Under the pieces are notes generated by a model. The model worked only from the letters and a program-made list of their open reading frames with translations, did not search any database and was not told the origin of the DNA. Below, piece by piece: positions 2,561 to 27,887 of a stretch of DNA of 29,215 bases; the stretch's first letter is position 1; each line of letters begins with the position of its first letter. The position numbers and the translations under genes are program-made. Origin of the DNA: Tolypothrix carrinoi HA7290-LM1 (GTDB taxonomy: Bacteria; Cyanobacteriota; Cyanobacteriia; Cyanobacteriales; Nostocaceae); contig JAHHIK010000101.1 in the NCBI GenBank assembly GCA_019358935.1, forward strand, positions 1 to 29,215, in the 5' to 3' direction.

Positions 2561-2621
2561 GCGATCGCCCTGACTCTACAATATAAAATCGCTGATTATA
2601 ACAAAAGTAAAAAGCGATCGC
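2561..2621 (+). repeat. HIP1-bounded ~60-bp direct repeat, copy B
   Basis: GCGATCGC-cctgactctacaatataaaatcgctgattataacaaaagtaaaaa-GCGATCGC. Confidence 0.85.
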
Positions 2622-5600
2622 CCCCTTGTCCCCCTTGTCCCCCTTGTCCCCCTTGTCCCCCCTCTCCCCCCCTCCTCTACTCTCAAAGCACACACCCCAG
2701 ACGCCTCAGGATGGGTAGTCAAATAAACCTGAAGCCAACTGCAACCCTGCGCTAATAAATCATCTAAATCCAGATTCCACAGTTTGATAGTATTGTCAGC
2801 ACTTGCGGAAGCTAGAGTTTTCCCATCCGGGCTGAAAGTCGCGTTATAAACTGAACTACTATGCCCCTTGAGGGTAGTAATTTGTTTTTTCGTGTCCAGA
2901 TTCCACAGTTTGATAGTATTGTCACCACTTGCGGAAGCGAGAGTTTTCCCATCCGGGCTGAAAGTCACGTTATAAACTGAACTACTATGCCCCTTGAGGG
3001 TAGTAATTTCTTTTTTCGTATCCAGATTCCACAGTTTGATGGTGTTGTTTTTACTTGCGGAAGCGAGAGTTTTCCCATCCGGGCTGAAAGTCGCGTTATA
3101 GACCCAACTACTATGCCCCTTGAGGGTAGTAATTTCTTTTTTCGTATCCAGATTCCACAGTTTGATGGTGTTGTCGCTACTTGCAGAAGCGAGAGTTTTC
3201 CCATCCGGGCTGAAAGTAACGCTATTGACCGGCTGACTATGCCCCTTGAAGGTAGTAATTTCTTTTTTCGTGTCCAGATTCCACAGTTTGATAGTATTGT
3301 CACCACTTGCGGAAGCGAGAGTTTTCCCATCCGGGCTGAAAGTCGCGCTATTGACCGAACTACTATGCCCCTTGAAGGTAGTAATTTCTTTTTTCGTGTC
3401 CAGATTCCACAGTTTGATGGTGTTGTCCTTACTTGCGGAAGCGAGAGTTTTCCCATCCGGGCTGAAAGTCGCGCTATTGACGAGCTGACTATGCCCCTTG
3501 AAAGTAGTAATTTGTTTTTTCGTGTCCAGATTCCACAGTTTGATGGTCTTGTCAGCACTTGCGGAAGCTAAAGTTTTCCCATCCGGGCTGAAACTGACAC
3601 TATAGATCGGCTGACTATGCCCCTTGAGGGTAGTAATTTCTTTTTTCGTGTCCAGATTCCACAGTTTGATGGTATTGTCAGCACTTGCGGAAGCTAAAGT
3701 TTTCCCATCTGGGCTGAAAGTCGCGCTATTAATCGGCTGACTATGCCCCTTGAGGGTAGTAATTTCTTTTTTCGTGTCCAGATTCCACAGGTTGATAGTG
3801 TTGTCAGCACTTGCGGAAGCTAGAGTTTTCCCATTCGGGCTGAAAGTCACGCTATTAACCGAACTATTATGCCCCTTGAAGGTAGTAATTTGTTTTTTCG
3901 TGTCCAGATTCCACAGTTTGATGGTCTTGTCAGCACTTGCGGAAGCTAAAGTTTTGCCATCCGGGCTGAAAGTCGCGCTATTGACGAGCTGACTATGCCC
4001 CTTGAGGGTAGTAATTTCTTTTTTCGTGTCCAGATTCCACAGTTTGATGGTCTTGTCAGCACTTGCGGAAGCTAAAGTTTTGCCATCCGGGCTGAAACTG
4101 ACACTATAGATCGGCTGACTATGCCCCTTGAGGGTAGTAATTTCTTTTTTCGTGTCCAGATTCCACAGTTTGATGGTGTTGTCAGCACTTGCGGAAGCTA
4201 AAGTTTTGCCATCCGGGCTGAAAGTCGCGCTATTGACGAGCTGAGTATGCCCCTTGAGGGTAGTAATTTCTTTTTTCGTGTCCAGATTCCACAGTTTGAT
4301 GGTGTTGTCAGCACTTGCGGAAGCTAAAGTTTTCCCATCCGGGCTGAAAGTAACGCTCCTGATCGGCTGACTATGCCCCTTGAAGGTAGTAATTTCTTTT
4401 TTCGTGTCCAGATTCCACAGTTTGATAGTATTGTCAGCACTTGCGGAAGCTAGAGTTTTCCCATCCGGGCTGAAAGTAACGCTATTGACCGGCTGACTAT
4501 GCCCTTCTAAGCGATTTTGTTCGCGAATCTTCGGCAAAATTGTCTGTAAGCTAAACAAAGGGCTGTAGATAGGATAATCTGCTAAAGATTGTTTATCTTT
4601 AACCAAAAGTTTCAATTTTTTAGAAGCCCACATTGCTGACACCAGCCCGTCGATTTCGTTTGAATCAAACTGTTGTAACGCATAAGTTCCGTCTTGTTCC
4701 AGTTTCGTAGCTGTGAGGGCATTTTTACGCGCTGTTTCTGCTTGTTGAGCAAACATTGCCAATACCACGGTTCCCACCAAAGTCACCCCTAACACCACAG
4801 AACCTATGCGAATCCGCTGATTAGCTTTGCGATTTGCTTCTGCTAAAATCTGCTTTGCTTGTTCTTCGGCTTCCAGTCGCTTCTGCACATCGCGCTTATC
4901 TAAATTCTGGCTAGCAGTAAAAAACTGATAGTCTAAATCACCCAAGCTTTTACCCGCAGCCCAACTTTGAGCATCCTGCAAAGCTTGTCCCCGCAACAAG
5001 CGCGACTCATCTTGATAGTCAGAAGCAACCCAAGCATTCAACGTATTAGAATAGGGACGCAGTTTTGCAAGTATTTTTTCACACCATTCTTGATTAAATA
5101 CCTCGGCGTAAATGCGGTTGTAAATTCGCAGCTTGCCATCACGCTTCACTACCAACCCCGTCAGCCGCAGTTCTGTTTGTTCGGGACTGTCATCAGCGGC
5201 TATCTCTCCTTCGCCGAGATTTTGACCTAACCCCCCAGCCCCCTTCCCTACGAGGGAAGGGGGAGCATCATTTCTCCCCTCCCCTTGTAGGGGAGGGGCT
5301 GGGGGAGAGGTCACAATTTGCTGACACAGCCCCAGTAATCTGCCGGTACGCTGTTCGCCACTGTGCATAATTCTGTCTCGGATGGTTCTCAGATGTTCTG
5401 GTTCATCCTGCGCTTCCCAATTTACGATAATACGCTCTCTCACCACGCACTCGACAAAAGCTTGCGGATTCGGTATTTTAAATTGCTCCCCCCCTCCCCC
5501 ACTCCCCACGCCAGTCGCTACAACGGAGGGAACCTCCGCAACGCGCTGGCTCCCCTCTCCCCCTCTCCCCTTCTCCCCCACCGCTGCTTGCAGTACTAAT

Positions 5601-11299: not shown

Positions 11300-12253
11300 A
11301 TGAGTGTTTTTGCCAACCAACTCAAGACAGAGATTACCTACTCTATCTACCCCATCTCTGACGGTAAACCGATGGCAGAGAGCGACTCAGCACGCGATTA
11401 TCTGATTTATGGTGTTGAAGCTTTAAATATTTATTTCCAAGACCGAGATGACGTTTATGTATCAGGGAATCTGTTCATTTACTACAAAAAGGGTGTTCCC
11501 AGTGCGGTAATGGCTCCCGATGTGTTTGTAGTGTTTGGGGTTGAGAAGAAAAAGCGTCTCAGTTACAAAGTTTGGCAAGAAGCAGGTAAAGTCCCTAATT
11601 TTGTTTTAGAAATCACTTCCGCAGCTACTCAGGAAAATGACGAAACCGAAAAACCTCTGAAGTATGCGGCTTTGGGCGTGCAAGAATACTTTCAGTACGA
11701 CCCGACAGGGGATTATCTGACACCACAACTCAAGGGTTCGCGTTTGGTTGAGGGCAAATATGAATTCAGAAGGCAGCTATGCTGAGGGCAGAGGGCAGAA
11801 GGAACCCACCCTTAAAAGTGTGGGATTGAAGCAAGGACACCGTTTTTCCTCGCGCTCCTTTTCTCGAAAAACATCTTTTTTTTAAATGGGCTTTAAACCC
11901 ATAACTAAAGTTTTTTTTTAGAGGGCAGGAGACAGAATGCCTTCAGCATAGCTGCCTCCTGCCCTCTGCCTTTCTTTGTAATTTCCCCAAACCATTTACC
12001 TGATGGGGTTTTGTCAATTCATAGCGAACAATTAAGTTTAGATTTACGGCTAATTGATGGAGAATTGCGCTTCTACGATCCCCGTACTGGAAAGAAACTC
12101 TTGAGTTATCAAGAAACGGAACAAGCGCGACAGCAAGCAGAACAAGCGCGACGAGATGCAATACCTCGATTGTTGGAATTGGGATTGAGTGTGGAACAGA
12201 TTGCAGCTGCTCTTAGCTTAAGTGTGGAGGAAGTTAGGCATTTGGTTCTGTGA
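11300..12253 (+). pseudogene. Uma2-family (PD-(D/E)xK) endonuclease interrupted by a 213-bp insertion
   Basis: SDGKPMAES, APDVFVV, VLEITS, GVQEYFQYDP. Removing 11765-11977 gives continuous ...VEGKYEVISPNHLPDGVLSIHSEQL... (246 aa). Confidence 0.85.
11765..11977 (+). mobile_element. 213-bp non-autonomous structured element (ATGAA^GT family), copy 2
   Basis: Subterminal inverted arms AGGCAGCTATGCTGA / TCAGCATAGCTGCCT plus GGCAGA(A/G) repeats; excision restores Uma2. Confidence 0.82.
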
Positions 12254-12393
12254 ATAATAGAGCGATCGCTTTATCATTGCATTAGTCGAGTGCAGAAGCA
12301 AAAGAAAAATGGGAAAGGATAGGGATTGAAGAGATTGAAATTTTCTTTCTCCTCTAATCTTTATTCATAAGAGTGCAAAAGCTACTTTTGTAA

Positions 12394-12552
12394 TCGGTTG
12401 TTGGAATTGGGATTGAGTATAGAGCAGATTGCAGCTGCTCTGAGCTTAACTGTGGAGGAAGTCAGGCACTTGGTTCTGTGAATAATAGAGCGATCGCGCA
12501 CAAACATCTACTCGATAATAGAGCGATCGCTTTATCATTGCATTAGTCGAGT
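12394..12552 (+). repeat. Duplicate of the Uma2 3' end and downstream flank (12166-12291)
   Basis: Encodes LLELGLSIEQIAAALSLTVEEVRHLVL*; contains an extra ATAATAGAGCGATCGC duplication (12482-97 / 12515-30). Confidence 0.88.
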
Positions 12553-15476: not shown

Positions 15477-16532
15477 TTATTCTGGTGTTAGCACTCCGTT
15501 ACCATTTTTTGTTTGATTACCTTGTGTATAAACTTCTCTAATCGGAAAGGGAATTTTAATGCCTTCTTCCTGATACTTTTTATGCAATTGCTTAATAAAT
15601 TTGTGTTTAGCAATGCGTTGGTCAAAGAATTCGTTCACCCGCATAAATACCGTAAAATCAATACTAGAATCTCCAAAAGTATGAAATCTGATAAACGGTT
15701 CATTTTCTAATAAGTCGGGTGAAACTTCTTGCATTACTTTTTTTGCAACCTCTACAGTTACTCTTTCAACTTGCTCAAGGTCGCTTTCGTAATCTACACC
15801 AACATTAATCGTTAATGTAATTTCCTTAACTGGTAAATGGTAATTAGTAAAAATCGCTGAGGCTAGTTTAGAATTAGGGACAATTATCACATTATTTGAA
15901 AGCTCTTTTATCGTCGTATTCCGCCATGTAATATCTGTAATATATCCTTCGTGTTTATCTTCTAATTTTACATAATCTCCGGTTCTAACTTGCTTAGAAA
16001 TAATTAAATAAACACCCGAAAATAAATTTGCAAGTGTATCTTGAAGTGCCAAACCAACTGCTAAACCACCAATTCCTAAAGTGGTAAGTATCGGTGTAAT
16101 TTGAATGCCAATCGTTTGTAAGATGATTAATGTTCCTAAAATTAAAATGGTAGTTGTGGCAAGGTTAGAAAGTAGTGATGCAGAAACTCCTTGTGTTCTC
16201 CGACTATATAATCTAACAAAACCAGCAATCAATCGGGCAATAACTAAGGTAATTGAATACAAAAAAACAATTGTCAGGATTGTTTGCAATACCTCGGCAA
16301 TATCTGGTATTAAGCTTCGATAAGCACGAATTGCTCCATAAAATCCAGCTAGCACAAACCAAGTAAAGGTGATGCGCTGTAAGGAGCGAAATAATATTTC
16401 ACTACCTGGTAACCGTTGGCGAGCAGCAAATGTTTTCAATTTACTAAAAACGATTTTTTCAGCAATTATTCCAGCTAGTAAGCCAGCTAAAATAAATCCC
16501 AACGGTAGAATCCATTGCATCAACATAAGCAA
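15477..16532 (-). CDS. Small-conductance mechanosensitive channel (MscS family)
   Basis: Multiple TM helices, LGIGGLAVGLALQDTLANLFSG, IIVPNSKL, GIKIPFP. Confidence 0.93.
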   Translation of the reverse strand: MLMLMQWILPLGFILAGLLAGIIAEKIVFSKLKTFAARQRLPGSEILFRSLQRITFTWFVLAGFYGAIRAYRSLIPDIAEVLQTILTIVFLYSITLVIARLIAGFVRLYSRRTQGVSASLLSNLATTTILILGTLIILQTIGIQITPILTTLGIGGLAVGLALQDTLANLFSGVYLIISKQVRTGDYVKLEDKHEGYITDITWRNTTIKELSNNVIIVPNSKLASAIFTNYHLPVKEITLTINVGVDYESDLEQVERVTVEVAKKVMQEVSPDLLENEPFIRFHTFGDSSIDFTVFMRVNEFFDQRIAKHKFIKQLHKKYQEEGIKIPFPIREVYTQGNQTKNGNGVLTPE

Positions 16533-16772
16533 ATCCCAATTTCAAGAAGATTATCAATTATGTCTGGAATATTTTCAATTTGTGATTTTCAATTCAATGC
16601 CTCCGTAATTGTGACGTTATAACCAATTTTATCGACTCAAAAATACACTTAGGTTTATTTGCTACTTGACTGTGTTTGGTTACAGTTTAAATTATACTTG
16701 GCTGAGTCAAAGAGCAACTATCACAGTTTGGGTAGTTGGCATTATTGGCGGTTAAAACTGAAAATTAATTAT

Positions 16773-17690
16773 ATGGACTTGCCAATTATTTATCACCCAG
16801 ATTACGTTGCACCACTACCTGAAGGACATCGCTTTCCGATGTTAAAGTTCCGGCAATTATACGAACTGCTGTTAGCTGACGGTGTGGCACAATTACAACA
16901 ATTCCACATCCCTGAATCTCCGCACCCTGAGTTGATAGAGTTAGTTCACAATCCAGACTACGTACAAGCTTACTGTAACGGAACGCTAGACCCAAAAGCA
17001 CAACGGCGCATTGGTTTACCTTGGAGTCCGGCGTTGGTAAATCGTACTTGTGTGGCGGTAGGTGGTACAATACTTACGGCTAAACTCGCACTAACTCACG
17101 GTTTGGCGTGTAATACTGCTGGTGGTACTCATCACGCCTTTCCCAGTTATGGTTCTGGTTTTTGTATTTTCAATGATTTAGCGATCGCCTGTCGCGTCTT
17201 ACAAAAACTTAACCTCATAAAAAAAATCCTGATTGTCGATTTAGATGTCCATCAAGGTGACGGCACCGCTTTTATCTTTCAAGATGACGACAGTGTTTTT
17301 ACTTTCTCGATGCACTGCGAAGTCAACTTTCCCGGTACTAAACAAAAAAGCGATCTTGATGTTCCCCTACCAACAGGAATGGAAGATGATGCTTATTTGC
17401 AAACATTGGCAAATTATTTACCATATTTATTGTCAGATGTCAAGCCAGATTTGATTTTATATGATGCTGGTGTCGATCCGCATGTAGGCGATCGCTTAGG
17501 AAAGTTAGCTTTAACTGACACTGGCATTTTCCGTCGGGAAATGCAGGTATTAAGTACCTGTGTAGCTGCTGGTTATCCCGTTGCCTGCGTTATCGGTGGT
17601 GGGTACGCGGATGATATCAAGTCGCTTGTGTGGCGTCACTCGTTGGTGCATCGCGCTGCGAGTCAGATTTATCAGCAGTATGGACTTTAG
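16773..17690 (+). CDS. Histone deacetylase family protein (Zn-dependent deacetylase/amidohydrolase)
   Basis: HRFPM, GGTHHA, GFCIFND, DLDVHQGDGT, YDAGVD, GGGY; ATG 16773 preferred to TTG 16659. Confidence 0.93.
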   Translation: MDLPIIYHPDYVAPLPEGHRFPMLKFRQLYELLLADGVAQLQQFHIPESPHPELIELVHNPDYVQAYCNGTLDPKAQRRIGLPWSPALVNRTCVAVGGTILTAKLALTHGLACNTAGGTHHAFPSYGSGFCIFNDLAIACRVLQKLNLIKKILIVDLDVHQGDGTAFIFQDDDSVFTFSMHCEVNFPGTKQKSDLDVPLPTGMEDDAYLQTLANYLPYLLSDVKPDLILYDAGVDPHVGDRLGKLALTDTGIFRREMQVLSTCVAAGYPVACVIGGGYADDIKSLVWRHSLVHRAASQIYQQYGL

Positions 17691-17993
17691 GCGATTTTAA
17701 GTAAGTTTCCGTGTTGGCATTTGGAACACTATAACTGAACACTTTATTGGGTTGGTTGCAGAAAAAGTTGGGGATAACGACGGTGAGTTCTTGGTCAAAG
17801 TTGATTATGCTCAACTGTCACGATGAAAAGGCTGGATTTGAAGGTTTTTTTCAGCTTTTGTCTTTTGTTTCAACAGCCAGATAAAAGTTTAGATGAGGAT
17901 GGTGAAAAGGTGATTAAAAGTTATTTGGTAAAAGAACATATTTCTATCATATTGAAGTACAAGTTCCTCCTGTGACAGAATCTAAGAAGATAG

Positions 17994-19698
17994 ATGCGAT
18001 TTTATCAGCGATCGCCTCCACTCAAGCTGTCATCGAGCTTTGACTTTATTCAGGTTGATGAAGTACAAGATACTCATTTATCTGAATATGAAATTGTCCA
18101 ATGTTTAGCTTATCGTACTGGCAATATTGCCATGATTGGTGATTTAGACCAAACTATTTACGAGTGGAGAGGTTCTGAACCTGATAAATTTATCAGTCAA
18201 TTTAAACAAGAGTTTCAACCTCAAGAATATTCTCTGACTTGGAATTACCGCGCTACTCAAACCTTACTTAATGCTGCTTCTGGTTTTGCTGACTGTTTTG
18301 AACAAAGATACACAAAAATTACCCCTGCACCTAATTGTGAGGTTGGAGAATTAATTCCAGTTTATGCAGGTCAAAATGAATTAGATGAAGCTAAATGGAT
18401 TGCGACACAGATTCAAAAGTTAGCTAAGAATGACCCCAATTTTCTCTATAACCGTATTGCTGTTTTAACTAGAAATCATAAACGAATTGAGATTATTACT
18501 AAACTTTTAGAAAAGTTAAATATTCCCTGTGTAACAGTTGAGCAACATCAATTCTTCATGCGTCAGGAAGTTAAAGATGCTTTGGCTTATGTACGATTAA
18601 TATTAAATCCTTTTGATACAGGTTCAATGCGTCGAATGTTACTGCGTCCAAATCGGGGAATTGGTTCTGTGACTATTGAGAATGTCATCAAAGAGGGAGA
18701 AGCTTGTGGGTTTAAACTCACTGATATGGCTTCAACTCAAACTTTTATTGATGGTGATGCTTTTAGCAATTTACTAACCGCTTATAATTCTGGCACAATT
18801 GTTGTTTTTGATGTGGAAACAACTGGTTTTTCAGCGAGTCAAGATGAAGTTATTGAAATTGCTGCATCTTTATTAGTTGCTGGGAAACTAGAAGATGATA
18901 ACGGCACATGCTCAAAAAGTCGGTTTATTCACTCCTAAATTTCAATGGGCAGATACTTGGGATTTAGCTAAACGCTTTATAGAATCAGATAGCTATAGTC
19001 TTGAAGCTTTGGCAACTAAGTTAAAGCTGACTCAATTACCCAGTCATCGTGCAATTGACGATACACGCACAACTGTAGAATTTTTAGCAATTTTAATACC
19101 TTTAGTTAAAGTTCATGCTGACTATCGCCAAGCTTTAGTCTATCGTTATGGGCAAGAATTTGAAAATTTAGCTCATGGTATTGAAAGTTGGAGAGATGCA
19201 AGCCAAAAATTACGTCCAGCAGATTTATTAGGTAAAATTTTAGTTGAGTCTGGTTTATATGACTATTATCACCAGGACGAACCAAAACGCCTAGAAAATA
19301 TCAAACGGCTAGTAAAGATTTTTCAAGCACAGGATGATTTAGAACTTCATCCAGATACAGCACTCAGAAGTATTATTGAGTATATTGCATTAGCGAAAAA
19401 CTTAGATCAAATTTCTCAGGATAATAATGAAGTCCTTGTTATCACAATTCATCAATCAAAAGGGTTAGAATTCGATACAGTTTTTCTATCAGGTATATCT
19501 GAAGATGAATTTACCACTTATTTCAGTGTGCGTGATAGTAACGTAGAAGAGGAAAAACGTCTATTTTATGTGGCTATGACAAGGGCAAAAAAACGCTTGT
19601 TTATATCGTTTTTTATGAAAGATTCTAAAAACTACTCGAAGTCAAAAAGTCAGTTTATTAGTTCACTACCTTCTGAATATTTAATTGATGTTGTTTAG
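17994..19698 (+). pseudogene. UvrD/PcrA-like helicase with inserted DEDDh exonuclease domain; 5'-truncated and frameshifted
   Basis: No Walker A; VDEVQD, GDLDQTIYEWRG, NYR, TIHQSKGLEFD, EEKRLFYVAMTRAK. Exo motifs FDVETTG and HRAIDD are split across frames near 18895-18938. Confidence 0.82.
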
Positions 19699-19979
19699 TA
19701 CGCTCAATTCTTGGGTCTTCCAACTTTTGAAAAGTATTTGAGTATAGTATCGTCGAAGTTCGCAGTCATAATTTGTAAATCTTAAGATGCGATCGCATCG
19801 CCTGAAATGCATTCGTAAAAGTATAACCCTTTAATATACCATTACTTTAGAGCCAATTTTGATGCGTTTGCCCTGATACACCTGAGAAATTTATAGCCGC
19901 ATCTGCTGCATCCCAAAACACCACAAGACAACCTCAAAGGCACAAAGTATAAAACCTTAAAAGCTAAAAAATAGTTTAA

Positions 19980-20206
19980 ATGCTGGTGTCGATCCGCATG
20001 TAGGCGATCGCTTGGGAAAGTTAGCTTTAACTGACACTGGCATTTTCCGTCGGGAAATGCAGGTATTAAGTACCTGTGTAGCTGCTGGTTATCCCGTTGC
20101 CTGCGTTATCGGTGGTGGGTACGCGGATGATATCAAGTCGCTTGTGTGGCGTCACTCGTTGGTGCATCGCGCTGCGAGTCAGGTTTATCAGCAGTATCGA
20201 CTTTAA
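19980..20206 (+). repeat. Second copy of the deacetylase gene 3' end (17464-17690)
   Basis: 227 bp, 4 mismatches by manual alignment; similarity continues ~20 bp past the stop. Confidence 0.95.
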
Positions 20207-20424
20207 AGGATTTTAGTAAGTATCCGCTCAAGTAATTTATAACCGATTTTCAAAAAACAAATGTCGGTGAGAGAAAGCGGCTTTTGCACTATTTGCGAAA
20301 GAATAGAAAGATTTTCCAACAGATTTTATATTGCGATCGACTCAATTTAATGTCAATTTATATACTTAGCCTACATAGCTTTTAGTCGAGTACATAGAAA
20401 ATTTTGGCATATATAACGTAGATT

Positions 20425-21897
20425 ATGAAAATTATCAAAACAGTAATTCTTGCTGGTATGGTTGCTTGTGCGATCGTGTTTGGAACTCCAGCACTTTCCC
20501 ATATTGTTGAACATCATGAGTATAAGCAAGCATCAAATCCGATGCTCAATAACGGTTCCAATACCGTGTCAGCATTTCATTACCATAATGCAATTCATTC
20601 CTCTACCGACGCTGATTCTGCTCTTGCTCCCGCAAACAGCAAGCGTCTTATTTGGAAAAATAAAGCTTTTGGAGCGATTGTTAGAAAGAATGTTGTTGAC
20701 CTTACCCCAAAAGAGAAACGGGCATTCGTTAATGCTGTGCGGGCATTAAAAAATATTGTACCAAGGGGTAGCCGTACTAATATCTATGACCAGTTTGTTG
20801 CAGTGCATGTGGGAGCTATGGGTTTAATGTACGATGATGCCCAAGGTCCTGCTGCCGGACATGATGGTGCCCATGAAAGCGCTATATTGCTACCGTGGCA
20901 TCGTGAGTTGGTATACCGATTTGAAAAAGCCTTGCAATCAGTAAACCCCAATGTAACGATTCCCTACTGGGATTGGACAGACCCTAAGGCGTTGTCAGTT
21001 ATCTTTAGTGATGATTTTATGGGACCGAATGGTGAAGGAGTAACCCTTAACATCCCGATTATCGAAGGTGGATTTGCTGTGTCGCTTGGTGATGGTCAAC
21101 AACCAAACTCGAATCTTCCGGGTTCAGGTAATGAAGGGGGATCTGATATGTCGCTTGCTGATGGTCAACAAGCAAACCCCAACATCCAGACGGTTACTGT
21201 TCAAGGGGGACCTGTTCAGTCTGGTCCTTTTTCAGCAGCTAGTGGATGGACTGTGAACCCAGACTTACATTTCAAGTCGTCATCAAGAGAAACATTTGGC
21301 GATCAAATCTTACGCTTTCTGCAAGTGCCTCCGACAAATAGTTACCCTGTTCCTAAAGAAGATATAGAGCAAGTCCTTGCCATTGACAACTATGAAACTT
21401 TTCGCCCAGCTTTAGAAGGTTTTATCAAAGTAGATAGCTCTACTGGACAACAAACACCTGGAATCTATTTGCATAACTATTCTCATAGCTTGGTTGGTGG
21501 AGGTACTTTCGACCCTGCTGTAGGTCGTCCTGAACCTCTAGGCACAATGGCTGACCTTGCTACTTCTATCAACGATCCAGTATTTTGGCTAGTTCATTCC
21601 AATGTGGATCGCCTTTGGGCTGAATGGCAGGCAAGTGGGCATGAAGGTAGCGATTATTATCCTGCCGTTGGTGGACATTATGGAGAGAATCTTAACGACC
21701 GGATGTGGCCTTGGGACGGAGGTGAGTCTACACCAGCGAATTGGGGTCCAGGGGATTCGTTATCCTTACTACCTGTTTTTTCAGCAAATGATATTGTCAC
21801 ACCAAGAGACACTCTGGATTTCCGAAAGTATCGCTATACCTATGACACTCTTATTTTTCCGGTTCGCAAACCTACTTGGAAAATAAATAGTGACTAA
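20425..21897 (+). CDS. Secreted tyrosinase-family (type-3 copper) protein
   Basis: Signal peptide; VRKNV, YDQFVAVH, GAHE...LPWHR (CuA), PYWDW, HNYSH and DPVFWLVHSNVDRLW (CuB). Confidence 0.9.
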   Translation: MKIIKTVILAGMVACAIVFGTPALSHIVEHHEYKQASNPMLNNGSNTVSAFHYHNAIHSSTDADSALAPANSKRLIWKNKAFGAIVRKNVVDLTPKEKRAFVNAVRALKNIVPRGSRTNIYDQFVAVHVGAMGLMYDDAQGPAAGHDGAHESAILLPWHRELVYRFEKALQSVNPNVTIPYWDWTDPKALSVIFSDDFMGPNGEGVTLNIPIIEGGFAVSLGDGQQPNSNLPGSGNEGGSDMSLADGQQANPNIQTVTVQGGPVQSGPFSAASGWTVNPDLHFKSSSRETFGDQILRFLQVPPTNSYPVPKEDIEQVLAIDNYETFRPALEGFIKVDSSTGQQTPGIYLHNYSHSLVGGGTFDPAVGRPEPLGTMADLATSINDPVFWLVHSNVDRLWAEWQASGHEGSDYYPAVGGHYGENLNDRMWPWDGGESTPANWGPGDSLSLLPVFSANDIVTPRDTLDFRKYRYTYDTLIFPVRKPTWKINSD

Positions 21898-21928
21898 CAA
21901 GCACATAAGTTAAGGAAGTATTCGCCTC

Positions 21929-22159
21929 TGTACAATGCTAGTGTTGACCCTCATCTAGGCGGCTTGGGAAAGTTAGCTTTAACCGACACTGGCATTTTCC
22001 GCCGGGAAATGCAGGTATTAAGTACCTGTGTAGCTGCTGGCTAGCCCGTCGCCTGTGTTATCGGTGGCGGGTACGCTGATGATATGAAGTCGCTTGTGTA
22101 GCGTCACTCCAAGAGTGCATCGCGTCGCTAATCAGATTTATCAGCAGTATCGCCTCTAA
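21929..22159 (+). pseudogene. Third, decayed copy of the deacetylase gene 3' end
   Basis: LYNASVDPHLGGLGKLALTDTGIFRREMQVLSTCVAAG*PVACVIGGGYADDMKSLV*RHS..; many third-position changes, two stops, one indel near the end. Confidence 0.9.
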
Positions 22160-22317
22160 CAAAAGGAGGAGATATAAAGATTTACATGTCTACCGATCCC
22201 TAGATGTTTTTGATTTATTTTTAGATGATTCTTAATAGTTAATTAACTATCACGTCCCAGCAAAAAATCGTCTAATTCGATACAATTTATAAGCTATAAG
22301 AGGCGAGGAGAAGTAAA

Positions 22318-23457
22318 GTGGTGCTATCAAAAGGCTTTGAAATTGAGATGTACACAGGCACGCCTCAAGGAGAAATCGTGGGACTCTCCGACAAAATTGT
22401 GGCATCTTTAGACGGATTTGTGCGAGAGCCAGATAGCCGCAATGTGGAATATATAACCGCACCATTTCACAATTATGAGCAGCTATTGTGCGCTCTGTTG
22501 CGTCCGAGGCAGCAACTGCGTAATTACCTGAAACAATTGGGCAATTACACGCTGATTCCGGGAAGTACTTTATCTTTAAGTGGTAGCGATCGCTTTTATC
22601 GTTCTGACCCCAACAATCCATACCACGATTACATTGAGCAAACCTACGGTACCAAAGTCGTCACCGCTAGCGTTCACATCAATGTCGGCATCAGCGACCC
22701 GGAATTATTAATGCGGGCATGTCGAATTATCCGCTTAGAAGCGCCTTTGTATTTAGCTTTAAGTGCCTCGTCTCCCTTTATCGATGGCAAGGCAACCGGG
22801 TATCACTCCACCCGTTGGGGATTATTCCCGCAAACACCTGAAGGAGTGCCGTTATTTGCCAGCCACGCTCATCATATTGAATGGGTGGAAAATCAACTGG
22901 CTGCTGGTACAATGCAAAATGTTCGTCATTTGTGGGTATCGGTACGACCAAATGGCGATCGCCGTCCTTACGATTTAAATCGCTTAGAACTGCGAATTTG
23001 TGACTTAGTAACAGATCCAATCGCTTTACTAGCAATTACCGCCTTGCTAGAAGCGCGTTTATTACAGATAATAGAAAATCCGCATATCGATCCGCTTACC
23101 CAAAGCAACTTCTCACCTGAAGAACTAATAACCCTCACAGCAAGCAACGAAGCAGCAGCAGCGTCTCTTAGCCTCGATGCTCAACTAATACATTGGCTTG
23201 ATGGCAGAAGCATTCTTGCCAGAGATTGGATTGCCGAATTAAGTAATGAAGTTTCGGCGATCGCCAAACGTCATGGCTTTGGCTGTTTCCTTTCGCCCTT
23301 ACAAAAAATACTCCGCGAAGGCAATGAGGCTCAACAGTGGCTGCAACTGCATTCTGTAGGTTTTGATACGACTTGCGTCATGACCCAGGCTATTCGTGCC
23401 ACGCGAGAACGAGAAATTGAACTAGAAAACAAATTGTGTTCCTCCCTAGTGGCTTAA
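22318..23457 (+). CDS. gshA: Glutamate--cysteine ligase, cyanobacterial type
   Basis: LSKGFEIEMYTG, REPDSRNVEY, TASVHIN, NRLELRICD; adjacent to trmL. Confidence 0.88.
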   Translation: MVLSKGFEIEMYTGTPQGEIVGLSDKIVASLDGFVREPDSRNVEYITAPFHNYEQLLCALLRPRQQLRNYLKQLGNYTLIPGSTLSLSGSDRFYRSDPNNPYHDYIEQTYGTKVVTASVHINVGISDPELLMRACRIIRLEAPLYLALSASSPFIDGKATGYHSTRWGLFPQTPEGVPLFASHAHHIEWVENQLAAGTMQNVRHLWVSVRPNGDRRPYDLNRLELRICDLVTDPIALLAITALLEARLLQIIENPHIDPLTQSNFSPEELITLTASNEAAAASLSLDAQLIHWLDGRSILARDWIAELSNEVSAIAKRHGFGCFLSPLQKILREGNEAQQWLQLHSVGFDTTCVMTQAIRATREREIELENKLCSSLVA

Positions 23458-23720
23458 GACTGCACCTTTTGTGTGGAAGTAAGTGATTAATTGCTCTGAA
23501 AAGAAAAAAAGTCAGCTTCTTTACATAAAATTTAATATTTCTTCATAAAAGCAAAAAAAACTCCCAGATATTCCTCTGGGAGGATTATTATTTTGTTTTA
23601 AATATCTAATCATTGGTATTTCGAGAGAAATATTAATAAAAGTTATATATAGAGAGTATCTATACGTAGAGATGGCAGTTTCGATACATTGATTGTTTGT
23701 ATACATTTATCCGCTCGCAA

Positions 23721-27575: not shown

Positions 27576-27798
27576 TTCCTGGCTGTCTTTTTGGTTTTTG
27601 AAAGTAAAACTCCCTATGAACGCTTTTCATCACCGCTACTAGGGAGCAATGAGCCGGGAGTGGTGAAGATTTTATTTCCTACTCCCTCATCTCTATTACC
27701 TAATTTTCTTTGCCTTGAAAAGCGCGAAAAATAATTGAGTTAAATGCTAGCCATGACAAAATTTTTCTGCTATATTTAGGAAGGCATTAAGAAAATAT

Positions 27799-27872
27799 GG
27801 CTCAGTAGCTCAGTTGGTTAGAGCGTGGGACTCATAAGCCTGAGGTCGTGTGTTCGAGTCACACCTGAGCCA
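27799..27872 (+). tRNA. trnM: tRNA-Met (CAT), elongator type, CCA not encoded
   Basis: Acceptor GGCTCAG/CTGAGCC, D arm GCTC/GAGC, loop CTCATAA, T arm GTGTG-TTCGAGT-CACAC. Confidence 0.92.
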
Positions 27873-27887
27873 TTTGAAAAATATCAT

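Follow-up and report, generated by a model that had tools for sequence, protein, structure and literature searches.

Displaced deacetylase gene ends and stepwise cargo accretion upstream of gshA in Tolypothrix carrinoi HA7290-LM1

Background

Integrons are defined by an IntI integrase, an attI site and attC sites, the last being imperfect palindromes of the form RYYYAAC...GTTRRRY. The HIP1 palindrome has gone unexplained for 30 years, and has lately been suspected of aiding gene transfer.

Several described systems resemble the locus analysed here. Insertions with long target duplication have an insert below 20 kb, a unique direct repeat longer than 30 bp and an empty allele in relatives, and the reported cases come mostly from naturally competent species, with one from Microcystis (Furuta, Abe and Kobayashi 2010, PMC2853133). 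In E. coli, single crossover of trimmed circles produces duplications of 109-950 bp and is RecA-dependent (Amarir-Bouhram et al. 2011, PMC3240628). The e14 element in icd displaces a 165-bp icdC end downstream (PMC11148124), and the flexible genomic islands of Alteromonas occupy the same location across species (PMC4119200). In Synechococcus PCC 7002, integration rises 7- to 130-fold when a homology arm has HIP1 at its edge (bioRxiv 2024.09.10.611283), and HIP1 has been reported at junctions and implicated in plasmid recombination and deletion (bioRxiv 2024.09.10.611283, PMC4390886, PMC5861425, PMC13756078, PMC9239245). The support for gene transfer described in these reports comes from laboratory transformation, genome statistics and a gene-family correlation, whereas the tails described below are natural and some of them start at HIP1; in the open-access literature, supplements aside, no description of HIP1-anchored displaced tails was found.

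The window (29,215 nucleotides, the whole of the stretch analysed) contains a deacetylase gene whose 3′ end recurs twice downstream, with cargo genes between the copies. Its repeats (227-248 bp), its inserts (2.3 and 1.7 kb), its empty alleles in relatives and the lack of any mobile-element gene in the inserts all resemble insertion with long target duplication. However, the set described in PMC2853133 has restriction-modification cargo, single events and repeats of ~45-100 bp, whereas this locus has an iterated coding end of ~230-250 bp, mixed cargo and a HIP1 bias; without restriction-modification cargo, it works like that class but lies outside the described set. One-sided homology, gene-end duplication and a variable start are shared with trimmed-circle crossover, although that account concerns a laboratory E. 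coli plasmid substrate and is described with neither iteration nor HIP1; true homology-facilitated illegitimate recombination, as given in the same paper, yields a deletion rather than the duplication seen here (PMC3240628). As with e14, there is an intact gene with a replacement C-terminus and an old end displaced downstream, but e14 is described with a single fixed att position and with an integrase and phage genes of its own, and neither kind of gene was found here (PMC11148124). Cassettes that are added or absent at one location across species, with interiors exchanged by homologous recombination, recall the Alteromonas islands, which are described at tRNA 3′ ends with mobile elements rather than as small cassettes at a protein-coding end without mobile-element genes (PMC4119200). 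The newest cassette at a fixed end and the variable single-gene cargo, including defence-like genes, are also reminiscent of an integron; unlike an integron, the locus has no IntI and no attC-like bounds, its repeats are gene fragments, its cassettes occur in both orientations, and there are many sites per genome.

Organization of the deacetylase-gshA interval

All features lie on the forward strand, apart from the palindromic HIP1 sites. The target of the insertions is an intact histone-deacetylase-family gene (16773..17690; 305 aa; PF00850, E 1.4e-58), which has 305-aa orthologues in relatives and whose longest ORF begins at a TTG at 16659. A HIP1 palindrome occupies codons 239-241 (17488..17495). 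The current 3′ end with ~21 nt beyond the stop (17464..17711), hereafter T1, continues into a flank that is of the G009/X4 type to 17756. Cassette 1, the newest (17712..19979), has this fixed left flank, an exchangeable interior with a broken UvrD-type helicase that carries an inserted exonuclease domain (17994..19698), and a right end derived from a PLD-nuclease gene, of which a 3′ remnant is left (19878..19979). The displaced tail T2 follows (19980..20226), with its frame open and HIP1 at 20004-20011. The older cassette 2 contains an intact tyrosinase-family gene (20425..21897; 490 aa; PF00264, E 1.4e-40), and beyond it lies the decayed tail T3 (21931..22159; repeat alignment 21935-22158). 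The ancestral deacetylase-gshA spacer (22160..22317), which is the flank that follows the intact gene in empty alleles, leads to the conserved right border, the glutamate-cysteine ligase gene gshA (22318..23457; TIGR02048, 718 bits against a cut-off of 249). No Rfam family was matched in 16500-23700, and there is no tRNA near the insertion site.

The three deacetylase gene ends

The sequence-only reading had the last 227 bp of the deacetylase gene recurring twice, and alignment, BLAST and read depth all bear this out. T2 is 96.8% identical to T1 over 248 nt, so the repeat extends ~21 nt beyond the stop, and there are exactly four mismatches in the 227 coding nucleotides; T3 is 86.8% identical to T1 over 227 nt. 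The two copies are detected by BLAST at E 1e-114 and 1e-72, with no additional copy in the 7.96-Mb assembly. Unitig depth is ~500 in unique parts, 837-1010 in parts shared by T1 and T2, and 1569 on a 38-nt piece common to all three tails, as taken from a sequencing run that is possibly itself the source of the assembly. This 1x/2x/3x pattern indicates that the repeats are not an assembly artefact, and the three 3′ ends are real.

T3 is interrupted by two stop codons (22042-44 and 22099-101) and has a +1 insertion; its own HIP1 site has lost 3 nt and survives as a remnant at 21959-21963. The proposed common start ~24 bp before HIP1 fits T1 (HIP1 at 17488) and T2 (at 20004), both of which have the site 24 nt past the tail start; T3 departs from it, with homology opening at least 4 nt before that of T2, at the equivalent of 17460, and its HIP1 destroyed. 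Divergence does grow with distance from the gene as had been claimed: in the segment that follows HIP1, 3/192 sites of T2 and 22/192 of T3 differ from the gene.

The allelic series in relatives

Ten other genomes of the genus were compared. Three have an empty, single-copy allele (G001, G002 and G008), six have extra tails, and one, 54% complete, has no match. The empty allele of G001 matches 21935-23465 at 94.3%, and those of G002 and G008 at ~90%. A tyrosinase-only allele is found in G003 and L051, and the alleles of other relatives contain a toxin-antitoxin-like pair or a Mokosh-like helicase and PLD pair. Run X4 has the identical three-tail frame, but with 5,541 other bases inside cassette 1. 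Cargo and tail number thus vary between relatives and the content of the interval is not invariant, in agreement with the comparison that the earlier reading had proposed.

These alleles show the order of insertion, from empty to tyrosinase and then to cassette 1, and show that the cargo is exchangeable. T3 is the original deacetylase 3′ end and the newest cassette adjoins the gene, which supports stepwise accretion; the empty and tyrosinase-only alleles uphold the claim that insertions were added one after another, each pushing the previous 3′ end downstream, with the youngest beside the gene. The empty, one-step and alternative alleles also make it likely that stacking took place by ordinary homology-based recombination.

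Outside the genus, 20 genomes of the family have two matches, of which 15 were kept; the five dropped were a contaminated genome (G160), three with distant weak matches (G064, G303 and G304) and one with a single broken gene (G401). In 382 genomes outside the family, no contig carries the gene followed by a tail. Nine genomes outside the family with two matches were set aside, the second match being a distant paralogue in six and a piece on another contig in three. Viral contigs contained no relative of the tail.

Mosaic structure and phylogeny of the tails

T2 is a hybrid. Over the 30 nt upstream it matches the G005 junction between PLD gene and tail exactly (19979/19980 here), its interior is nearly identical to T1, and downstream it has the flank that G003 carries behind its intact gene. 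Compared with G001, T3 has 7/28 differing sites before HIP1 and 16/192 after it (Fisher p 0.015, on few sites); compared with alleles outside the genus, it has 4/28 before HIP1 and 48-50/192 after. On these few sites, T3 appears to switch around HIP1 from foreign-like sequence (the first ~28 nt) to genus-like sequence.

In a tree built from the sequence after HIP1, with 22 rows and without two short tails, T2 clusters with the gene of its own genome (99/96) and the tail of G004 with the genes of G004 and G006 (97/97), a pattern that exchange between close relatives would produce. The tail phylogeny that had been suggested therefore places T2 with its own gene but does not place T3 among the genus alleles.

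Tail starts and HIP1

The longest tails start at 17460 or a few nucleotides earlier (the tyrosinase junction), 17464 (the PLD junction) and 17470 (G014), within a window of ~13 nt that lies 18-30 nt before HIP1 and not at HIP1. Other tails start at 17481-17597, and junctions across relatives are spread over ~100 nt. However, a single tyrosinase insertion has tails starting at 17460, 17481 and 17566 in different strains, which indicates that later deletion scatters the starts. The scatter, at first accepted as evidence against a fixed site, was discounted once this erosion was found, and is weak evidence on that point.

HIP1 is present at the 17488 position in 73 of 101 full-length deacetylase orthologues, and several tails in relatives either start or carry a lesion there; the tails of G004, G009, G312, G389 and G394 start inside it or within 2 nt. 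Such coincidence may mark where a deletion stopped and not where DNA entered. A heuristic genome-wide scan, which takes in probable paralogue remnants, detected displaced tails on 31 genes. Seven of the 31 junctions are at HIP1 and 24 are away from it, compared with 0.56 expected at HIP1 (0/3000 draws reached the observed value) and 0-4 in 14 slid controls, whose mean of 1.5 is itself above the random-gene null.

Proposed mechanism

We consider it fairly probable that the array was built by integrase-free additive recombination of the long-target-duplication type, in which an existing tail would likely serve as homology arm for the next addition. In the founding step, DNA with one-sided deacetylase homology would join the gene, either by single crossover of a piece that had been trimmed and recircularised or through a short-homology join, and the last ~230 nt would be duplicated. 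In propagation, the tail of a donor gene-cargo-tail molecule would act as the right arm against the recipient's gene end, so that cargo is added upstream of the recipient's existing content; the gene would stay intact, the junction would be inherited unchanged and the array would grow on its gene-proximal side. The hybrid flanks of T2 are what this step predicts. Later, replacement recombination between common flanks would exchange the interiors, and deletions, often ending at HIP1, would erode the older tails. Host homologous recombination probably resolves at or near HIP1, and DNA uptake by the organism is putative; ComEC and DprA genes are present.

Site-specific recombinases

It is also possible, though unlikely, that a site-specific integrase, lost or acting in trans, targeted codons 229-231 as its att site and brought a new 3′ end for the gene, in the manner of e14 in icd, that the array arose by repeated integration, and that homologous recombination only reshuffled the locus later. 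A fixed att site would be the simpler account of the narrow start window, given that two cargo junctions lie 4-7 nt apart, that a remnant from a third genus starts 6 nt further on, and that shorter tails are eroded. The gene is always restored with the newest element proximal, the T2 hybrid would fit the attR of a PLD-ended element, and the 20 tyrosine and 11 serine recombinase matches in the genome could act in trans. However, T1 is not foreign (3/192 differences from T2), its flank is unlike that of G005 despite the same right junction, no inverted-repeat core of at least 4 bp occurs at the junction itself, and many integrases would have to have been lost to account for like scars at 31 unrelated genes; the lack of same-contig tails in the 382 genomes outside the family also counts against it.

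That no integrase is left at the site, as had been noted, holds beyond this genome. PF00589 and PF00239 have no match on this contig, and no recombinase lies inside the interval of 48 deacetylase-gshA-spanning loci (~3 duplicates), bar an IS-type TnpB region in G006. Of the 31 tailed genes, one has a Pfam-defined recombinase within 3 kb, and that gene is itself an integrase; no integrase or transposase family was matched by any of 59 scanned cargo ORFs. The 15 family-level tail fragments examined have no integrase next to them, save one plasmid-type recombinase. This enzyme, the G306/L132 tyrosine recombinase ~1.1 kb from a tail, was considered as a targeting enzyme and rejected as a conserved plasmid-backbone enzyme, because of its 45 loci only the query's own contig has a deacetylase piece, against 0/44 of the others. 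Further recombinase matches were set aside, those of L082, L084 and L087 lying 4-8 kb upstream of tail-less genes and those of L037 and L041 being IS-type sequence.

In a simple pattern test of the sequence around the three junctions, neither strand contained an attC pair. With neither integrase nor attC, junctions spread over ~100 nt, displaced ends at several positions of a further gene of the locus, the helicase, and tails on 31 genes genome-wide, the earlier description of an integron-like or single special site is not supported. Of the two mechanisms then offered, homology- or HIP1-assisted capture is the likelier, with a trans-acting or lost recombinase keeping a small share of the probability for the founding junction.

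Tandem duplication and assembly

In another reading, replication slippage or unequal crossover duplicated the gene end locally in tandem, and unrelated insertions and decay came later. This would suit the 97% identity of T1 and T2, including the 21 nt beyond the stop, and a genome in which repeats are abundant. It is nonetheless improbable, because the upstream junction of T2 pre-exists in another species (G005), the downstream flanks of T1 and T2 match different relatives, the 5′ end of T3 is foreign-like, no locus examined has a tandem tail-tail allele, and tails outnumber heads 31 to 10 genome-wide. An assembly artefact has negligible probability even for a draft of 184 contigs whose sole near-complete read set consists of short unitigs, given that depth rises in steps, that each copy has flanks of its own which are matched in independent genomes, and that the three-tail frame recurs in an independent strain.

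Wider significance

If additive recombination at HIP1 extends beyond this locus, HIP1 near the 3′ ends of conserved genes would be an entry point for foreign cyanobacterial DNA and tails would be reusable arms, with host recombination and HIP1-recognition machinery running integrase-free, self-propagating integron-like arrays, often with defence cargo, at dozens of housekeeping genes per genome in filamentous cyanobacteria. This extension is tentative and rather doubtful. If true, it would explain how defence and accessory genes build up behind cyanobacterial housekeeping genes without mobile-element enzymes, and engineering could use it to stack markers. Displaced gene tails document insertions that nature has completed, and their junctions can still be read. 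The unusually full allele series at this locus (empty, one-step, two-step and swapped interior) allows HIP1 as entry point to be separated from HIP1 as deletion end point, and provides a simple construct for testing the tail as homology arm.

Cargo genes

The broken UvrD-exonuclease and intact tyrosinase originally read between the copies are both present. The former comprises two ORFs (17994-18938 and 18895-19698) which, against a homologue of 825 aa, cover residues 213-499 and 558-820; ~212 residues at the N-terminus and ~58 internal ones are missing. The best PADLOC model for it is RTasHel. The stretch at 17712-17993 has no useful match in 11 loci of helicase homologues. The tyrosinase of cassette 2 is common to G003, L051, G009 and runs X2-X4.

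An MkoA-like helicase sits in the deacetylase-gshA interval of many relatives. In G016 the Mokosh-type pair is detected as MkoA (E 1e-115) and MkoB (E 3.3e-30), with AAA_11/AAA_12 and a weak PLDc_2. This agrees with the Mokosh type I gene order, in which a PLD nuclease gene comes after one for an Upf1-like RNA helicase. The Mokosh type I helicase is described as bearing a Ser/Thr kinase domain (bioRxiv 2022.05.11.491447). Since no kinase family was matched in any of the four relatives' helicases scanned, three of which have IF2_N instead, these cassettes are named Mokosh-like. About 100 nt of such a cassette is left in the window, namely the PLD-nuclease remnant, which the sequence-only reading had missed and which derives from the MkoB-like partner of the MkoA-like helicase.

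Structure of the deacetylase-gshA interval

The window, which is the whole of contig C101 in a 7.96 Mb, HIP1-rich assembly (G000; 0.99 of these cyanobacterial palindromes per kb) that probably belongs with the filamentous Nostocales, carries an intact gene for a 305 aa protein of the histone-deacetylase family (PF00850; 16773-17690, plus strand). The final 227 nt of this gene form a repeat unit, and only two further copies were detected in the whole assembly. T2 (19980-20226) is 96.8% identical over 248 nt to the gene's own end, T1, with four coding mismatches and an open frame, and T3 (21935-22158) is 86.8% identical, with two stops, a +1 insertion and a HIP1 site lacking 3 nt. The right border is gshA, which matches the cyanobacterial family TIGR02048. 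In a sequencing run that is possibly the source of the assembly, unitigs reach depths of approximately 500, of 837-1010 and of 1569, corresponding to one, two and three copies. Sequence matches and depth thus confirm the triple gene end, a real and well-resolved structure that is almost certainly not an assembly artefact.

Cassette 1 (17712-19979), between T1 and T2, contains two pieces of a UvrD-type helicase that carries an exonuclease insert (they correspond to residues 213-499 and 558-820 in a homologue of 825 aa, present in 12 of 150 family genomes), for which RTasHel is the top PADLOC model; its right end is a remnant of approximately 100 nt from a PLD-nuclease gene. HIP1 sites at 18008-18015, about 25 nt upstream of the truncated start of helicase homology, and at 19789-19796, just upstream of the PLD-like remnant, are possibly deletion end points within this cassette. 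Cassette 2, between T2 and T3, contains an intact tyrosinase. A search of the site region detected no tRNA or Rfam family at the insertion site.

Alleles in related genomes

Among ten other genomes from the genus, three have empty sites, six have extra tails and one, which is incomplete, has no match. The empty alleles, in which about 160 nt separate the gene from gshA, align with the window from T3 onward (G001 at 94%), which identifies T3 as the original gene end. G003 and the metagenome locus L051 have the order gene, tyrosinase, tail, gshA. G004 has a two-gene pair without a Pfam or PADLOC match, in which one motif points to a possible PIN-type toxin-antitoxin, followed by a tail whose start falls within HIP1. 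The G005 allele (helicase, PLD, tail, gshA) spans a contig break, and G006 and G009 have longer stacks with at least two tail fragments. Run X4, from a strain about 95% identical, preserves the window's three-tail frame. Its cassette 1 is occupied by 5,541 bases of different sequence, and its T2 has lost 12 nt, beginning within the HIP1 site. This allelic series and the interior swap bear out the variable cargo anticipated by the sequence-only reading. In G010, the gene (L042 2598-3005, followed by a galE-like fragment) and the tail with gshA (L043 8674-9377) are on separate contigs with unrelated housekeeping neighbours, as they are in G394 (L130/L131) and G312 (L134/L135), which suggests rearrangements breaking at cassette sites.

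Outside the genus, a protein search detected tail fragments in 15 of 378 family genomes, and a DNA search added another (G014). Ten of these genomes have a different junction, in which the PLD start adjoins approximately codon 264; the helicases, too, have displaced 3' ends, at several positions. In 382 genomes outside the family, no tail was detected downstream on the gene's own contig. At L103 (493-2131), a deacetylase orthologue is split by an ORF labelled TnpB-like from its N-terminal motif. The usual resident in other genera is an Upf1-like helicase and PLD pair that scores as MkoA/MkoB, without the kinase domain that Mokosh type I has (bioRxiv 2022.05.11.491447). In this family-wide, Mokosh-like pair (L046 2394-8757; L045, L047, L048) an IF2_N domain occupies the place of the kinase in three of four helicases scanned, and several genomes have second, divergent (58-64%) helicase and PLD copies in a tandem stack.

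Junctions and mechanism

The 30 nt upstream of T2 are identical to the PLD/tail junction of G005, and its downstream flank is that found after the intact gene of G003; T2 thus combines donor and recipient sequence, and its junction was inherited. The downstream flank of T1 is of the G009 type. Past HIP1 (17488-17495 in T1), T2 and T1 are unlike at 3 of 192 positions and group together in a tree (99/96), and the G004 tail clusters with the genes of G004 and G006 (97/97). The new ends therefore derive from close relatives or have been homogenised; a travelling foreign element was not their source. Compared with G001, T3 has 7 differences in the 28 positions before HIP1, where it is closer to non-genus alleles, and 16 in the 192 after (p 0.015), an apparent switch of origin near HIP1 that rests on few sites.

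We consider it fairly probable that host recombination added DNA with one-sided homology, duplicating the gene end, and that the existing tail would then serve as the right homology arm for the next addition. Such reuse would leave the gene intact, pass on the junction, make the tail a hybrid and extend the array from the gene-proximal side; interiors would be exchanged between common flanks, and old tails would erode. The products are present in these alleles, and from them we infer the recombination reactions. In E. coli, single crossovers of trimmed circles give 109-950 bp duplications (PMC3240628), and in PCC 7002 integration is raised by HIP1 at the edge of a homology arm (bioRxiv 2024.09.10.611283).

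Of the two routes initially proposed, homology/HIP1-assisted capture is preferred. The rival account, in which an integrase that acts in trans or has since been lost used an att site at codons 229-231, in the manner of e14 at icd (PMC11148124), seems rather unlikely. In its favour, the longest tails begin inside a span of about 13 nt; this clustering, combined with erosion, is the main result against the preferred reading and keeps a founding integrase alive. In relatives, tail starts, in T1-equivalent coordinates, are at 17460, 17464, 17470, 17481, 17486 (twice), 17488, 17491, 17492, 17504, 17507, 17522 and 17555-17597, five being inside HIP1 or at most 2 nt away. Since the tail of a single tyrosinase insertion starts at 17460, 17481 or 17566 depending on strain, erosion accounts for part of this scatter, and is perhaps also behind some of the HIP1 coincidence. 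Both routes can be combined, an integrase founding the array and recombination spreading it. Plain duplication of the gene end is an improbable account of these tails.

When 31 recombinase matches from G000 were used as queries against 120 loci, 48 of which (approximately three being duplicates) span deacetylase to gshA, no recombinase was detected within that interval except for an IS-type TnpB region in G006. Neither a recombinase nor an attC pattern was detected at the window site, and with both tested features absent the integron-like identity is not supported. The one tyrosine recombinase detected near a tail was rejected as the targeting enzyme, as it belongs to a plasmid backbone and a deacetylase piece is absent in 44 of its 44 other loci. 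It lies in G306, where the chromosomal site is empty while a plasmid-type contig (L132 3097-8161) holds, beside this conserved enzyme, a degraded deacetylase tail, a helicase with an internal deletion and PLD. Another plasmid-type contig, L178, has the G004-type gene pair (95/91% identity). Given these contents, plasmids are plausible vehicles for cargo.

The closest working likeness is 'insertion with long target duplication', here iterated; in PMC2853133, restriction-modification cargo is one criterion of that class, and the window locus carries none. Iteration yields an additive island (compare PMC4119200).

Displaced 3' ends across the genome

Two heuristic scans of G000 detected 3' ends displaced 0.2-10.6 kb downstream, one scan for 23 genes in 26 events and the other for 31 genes in 36 events. 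Among the genes affected are ilvD, nadC, malic enzyme and one of comM type; the set of 31 probably includes some paralogue remnants. Three genes, namely the deacetylase, malic enzyme and one on C52, show two displaced tails each. In the smaller set, 5 of 23 junctions fall at HIP1 (0.45 expected; 0 of 2000 draws), and in the larger set 7 of 31 do so (0.56 expected; 0 of 3000 draws), against 0-4 in slid controls (mean 1.5; Poisson p 0.0009). Displaced 5' ends were detected for ten genes, one at HIP1. One of the 31 loci has a recombinase within 3 kb, an integrase that is itself the tailed gene, and no integrase or transposase family was detected in 59 scanned cargo ORFs of 64 found (three others, the window's own, were scanned separately). 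ComEC and DprA genes are present in G000. In the open-access literature searched, no description was found of cyanobacterial displaced tails with a HIP1 bias. A broader reading, less likely than not, is that cassettes stack by a general process independent of integrases, with HIP1 as the point of entry; if true, it would make the finding weightier.

Both displaced tails of malic enzyme (C19 57247-61700, L217) start within HIP1, a cleaner case than the window, and are interleaved with a tail displaced from an acyl-CoA dehydrogenase gene in converging orientation. For the comM-type Mg-chelatase gene (C111 15947-23541, L231), the displaced tail measures 142 nt and lies 6 kb downstream; its cargo showed no integrase, although comM is a common integrase target.

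The window contains a second displaced tail, the last 50 nt of an AAA-WD40 gene (2561-2625, minus strand) repeated 636 nt downstream (1925-1988) and starting 4 nt upstream of HIP1. A 104-nt repeat (12166-12269 and 12394-12497, 92%), each copy ending at HIP1, closes a Uma2-like gene region that is probably split. The first ORF is separated from the WD40 gene by an array of at least 13 repeats of 21 nt, palindromic in character (1429-1827), and a tRNA-Met gene (27798-27873) adjoins a Uma2-like ORF close to the end of the contig.
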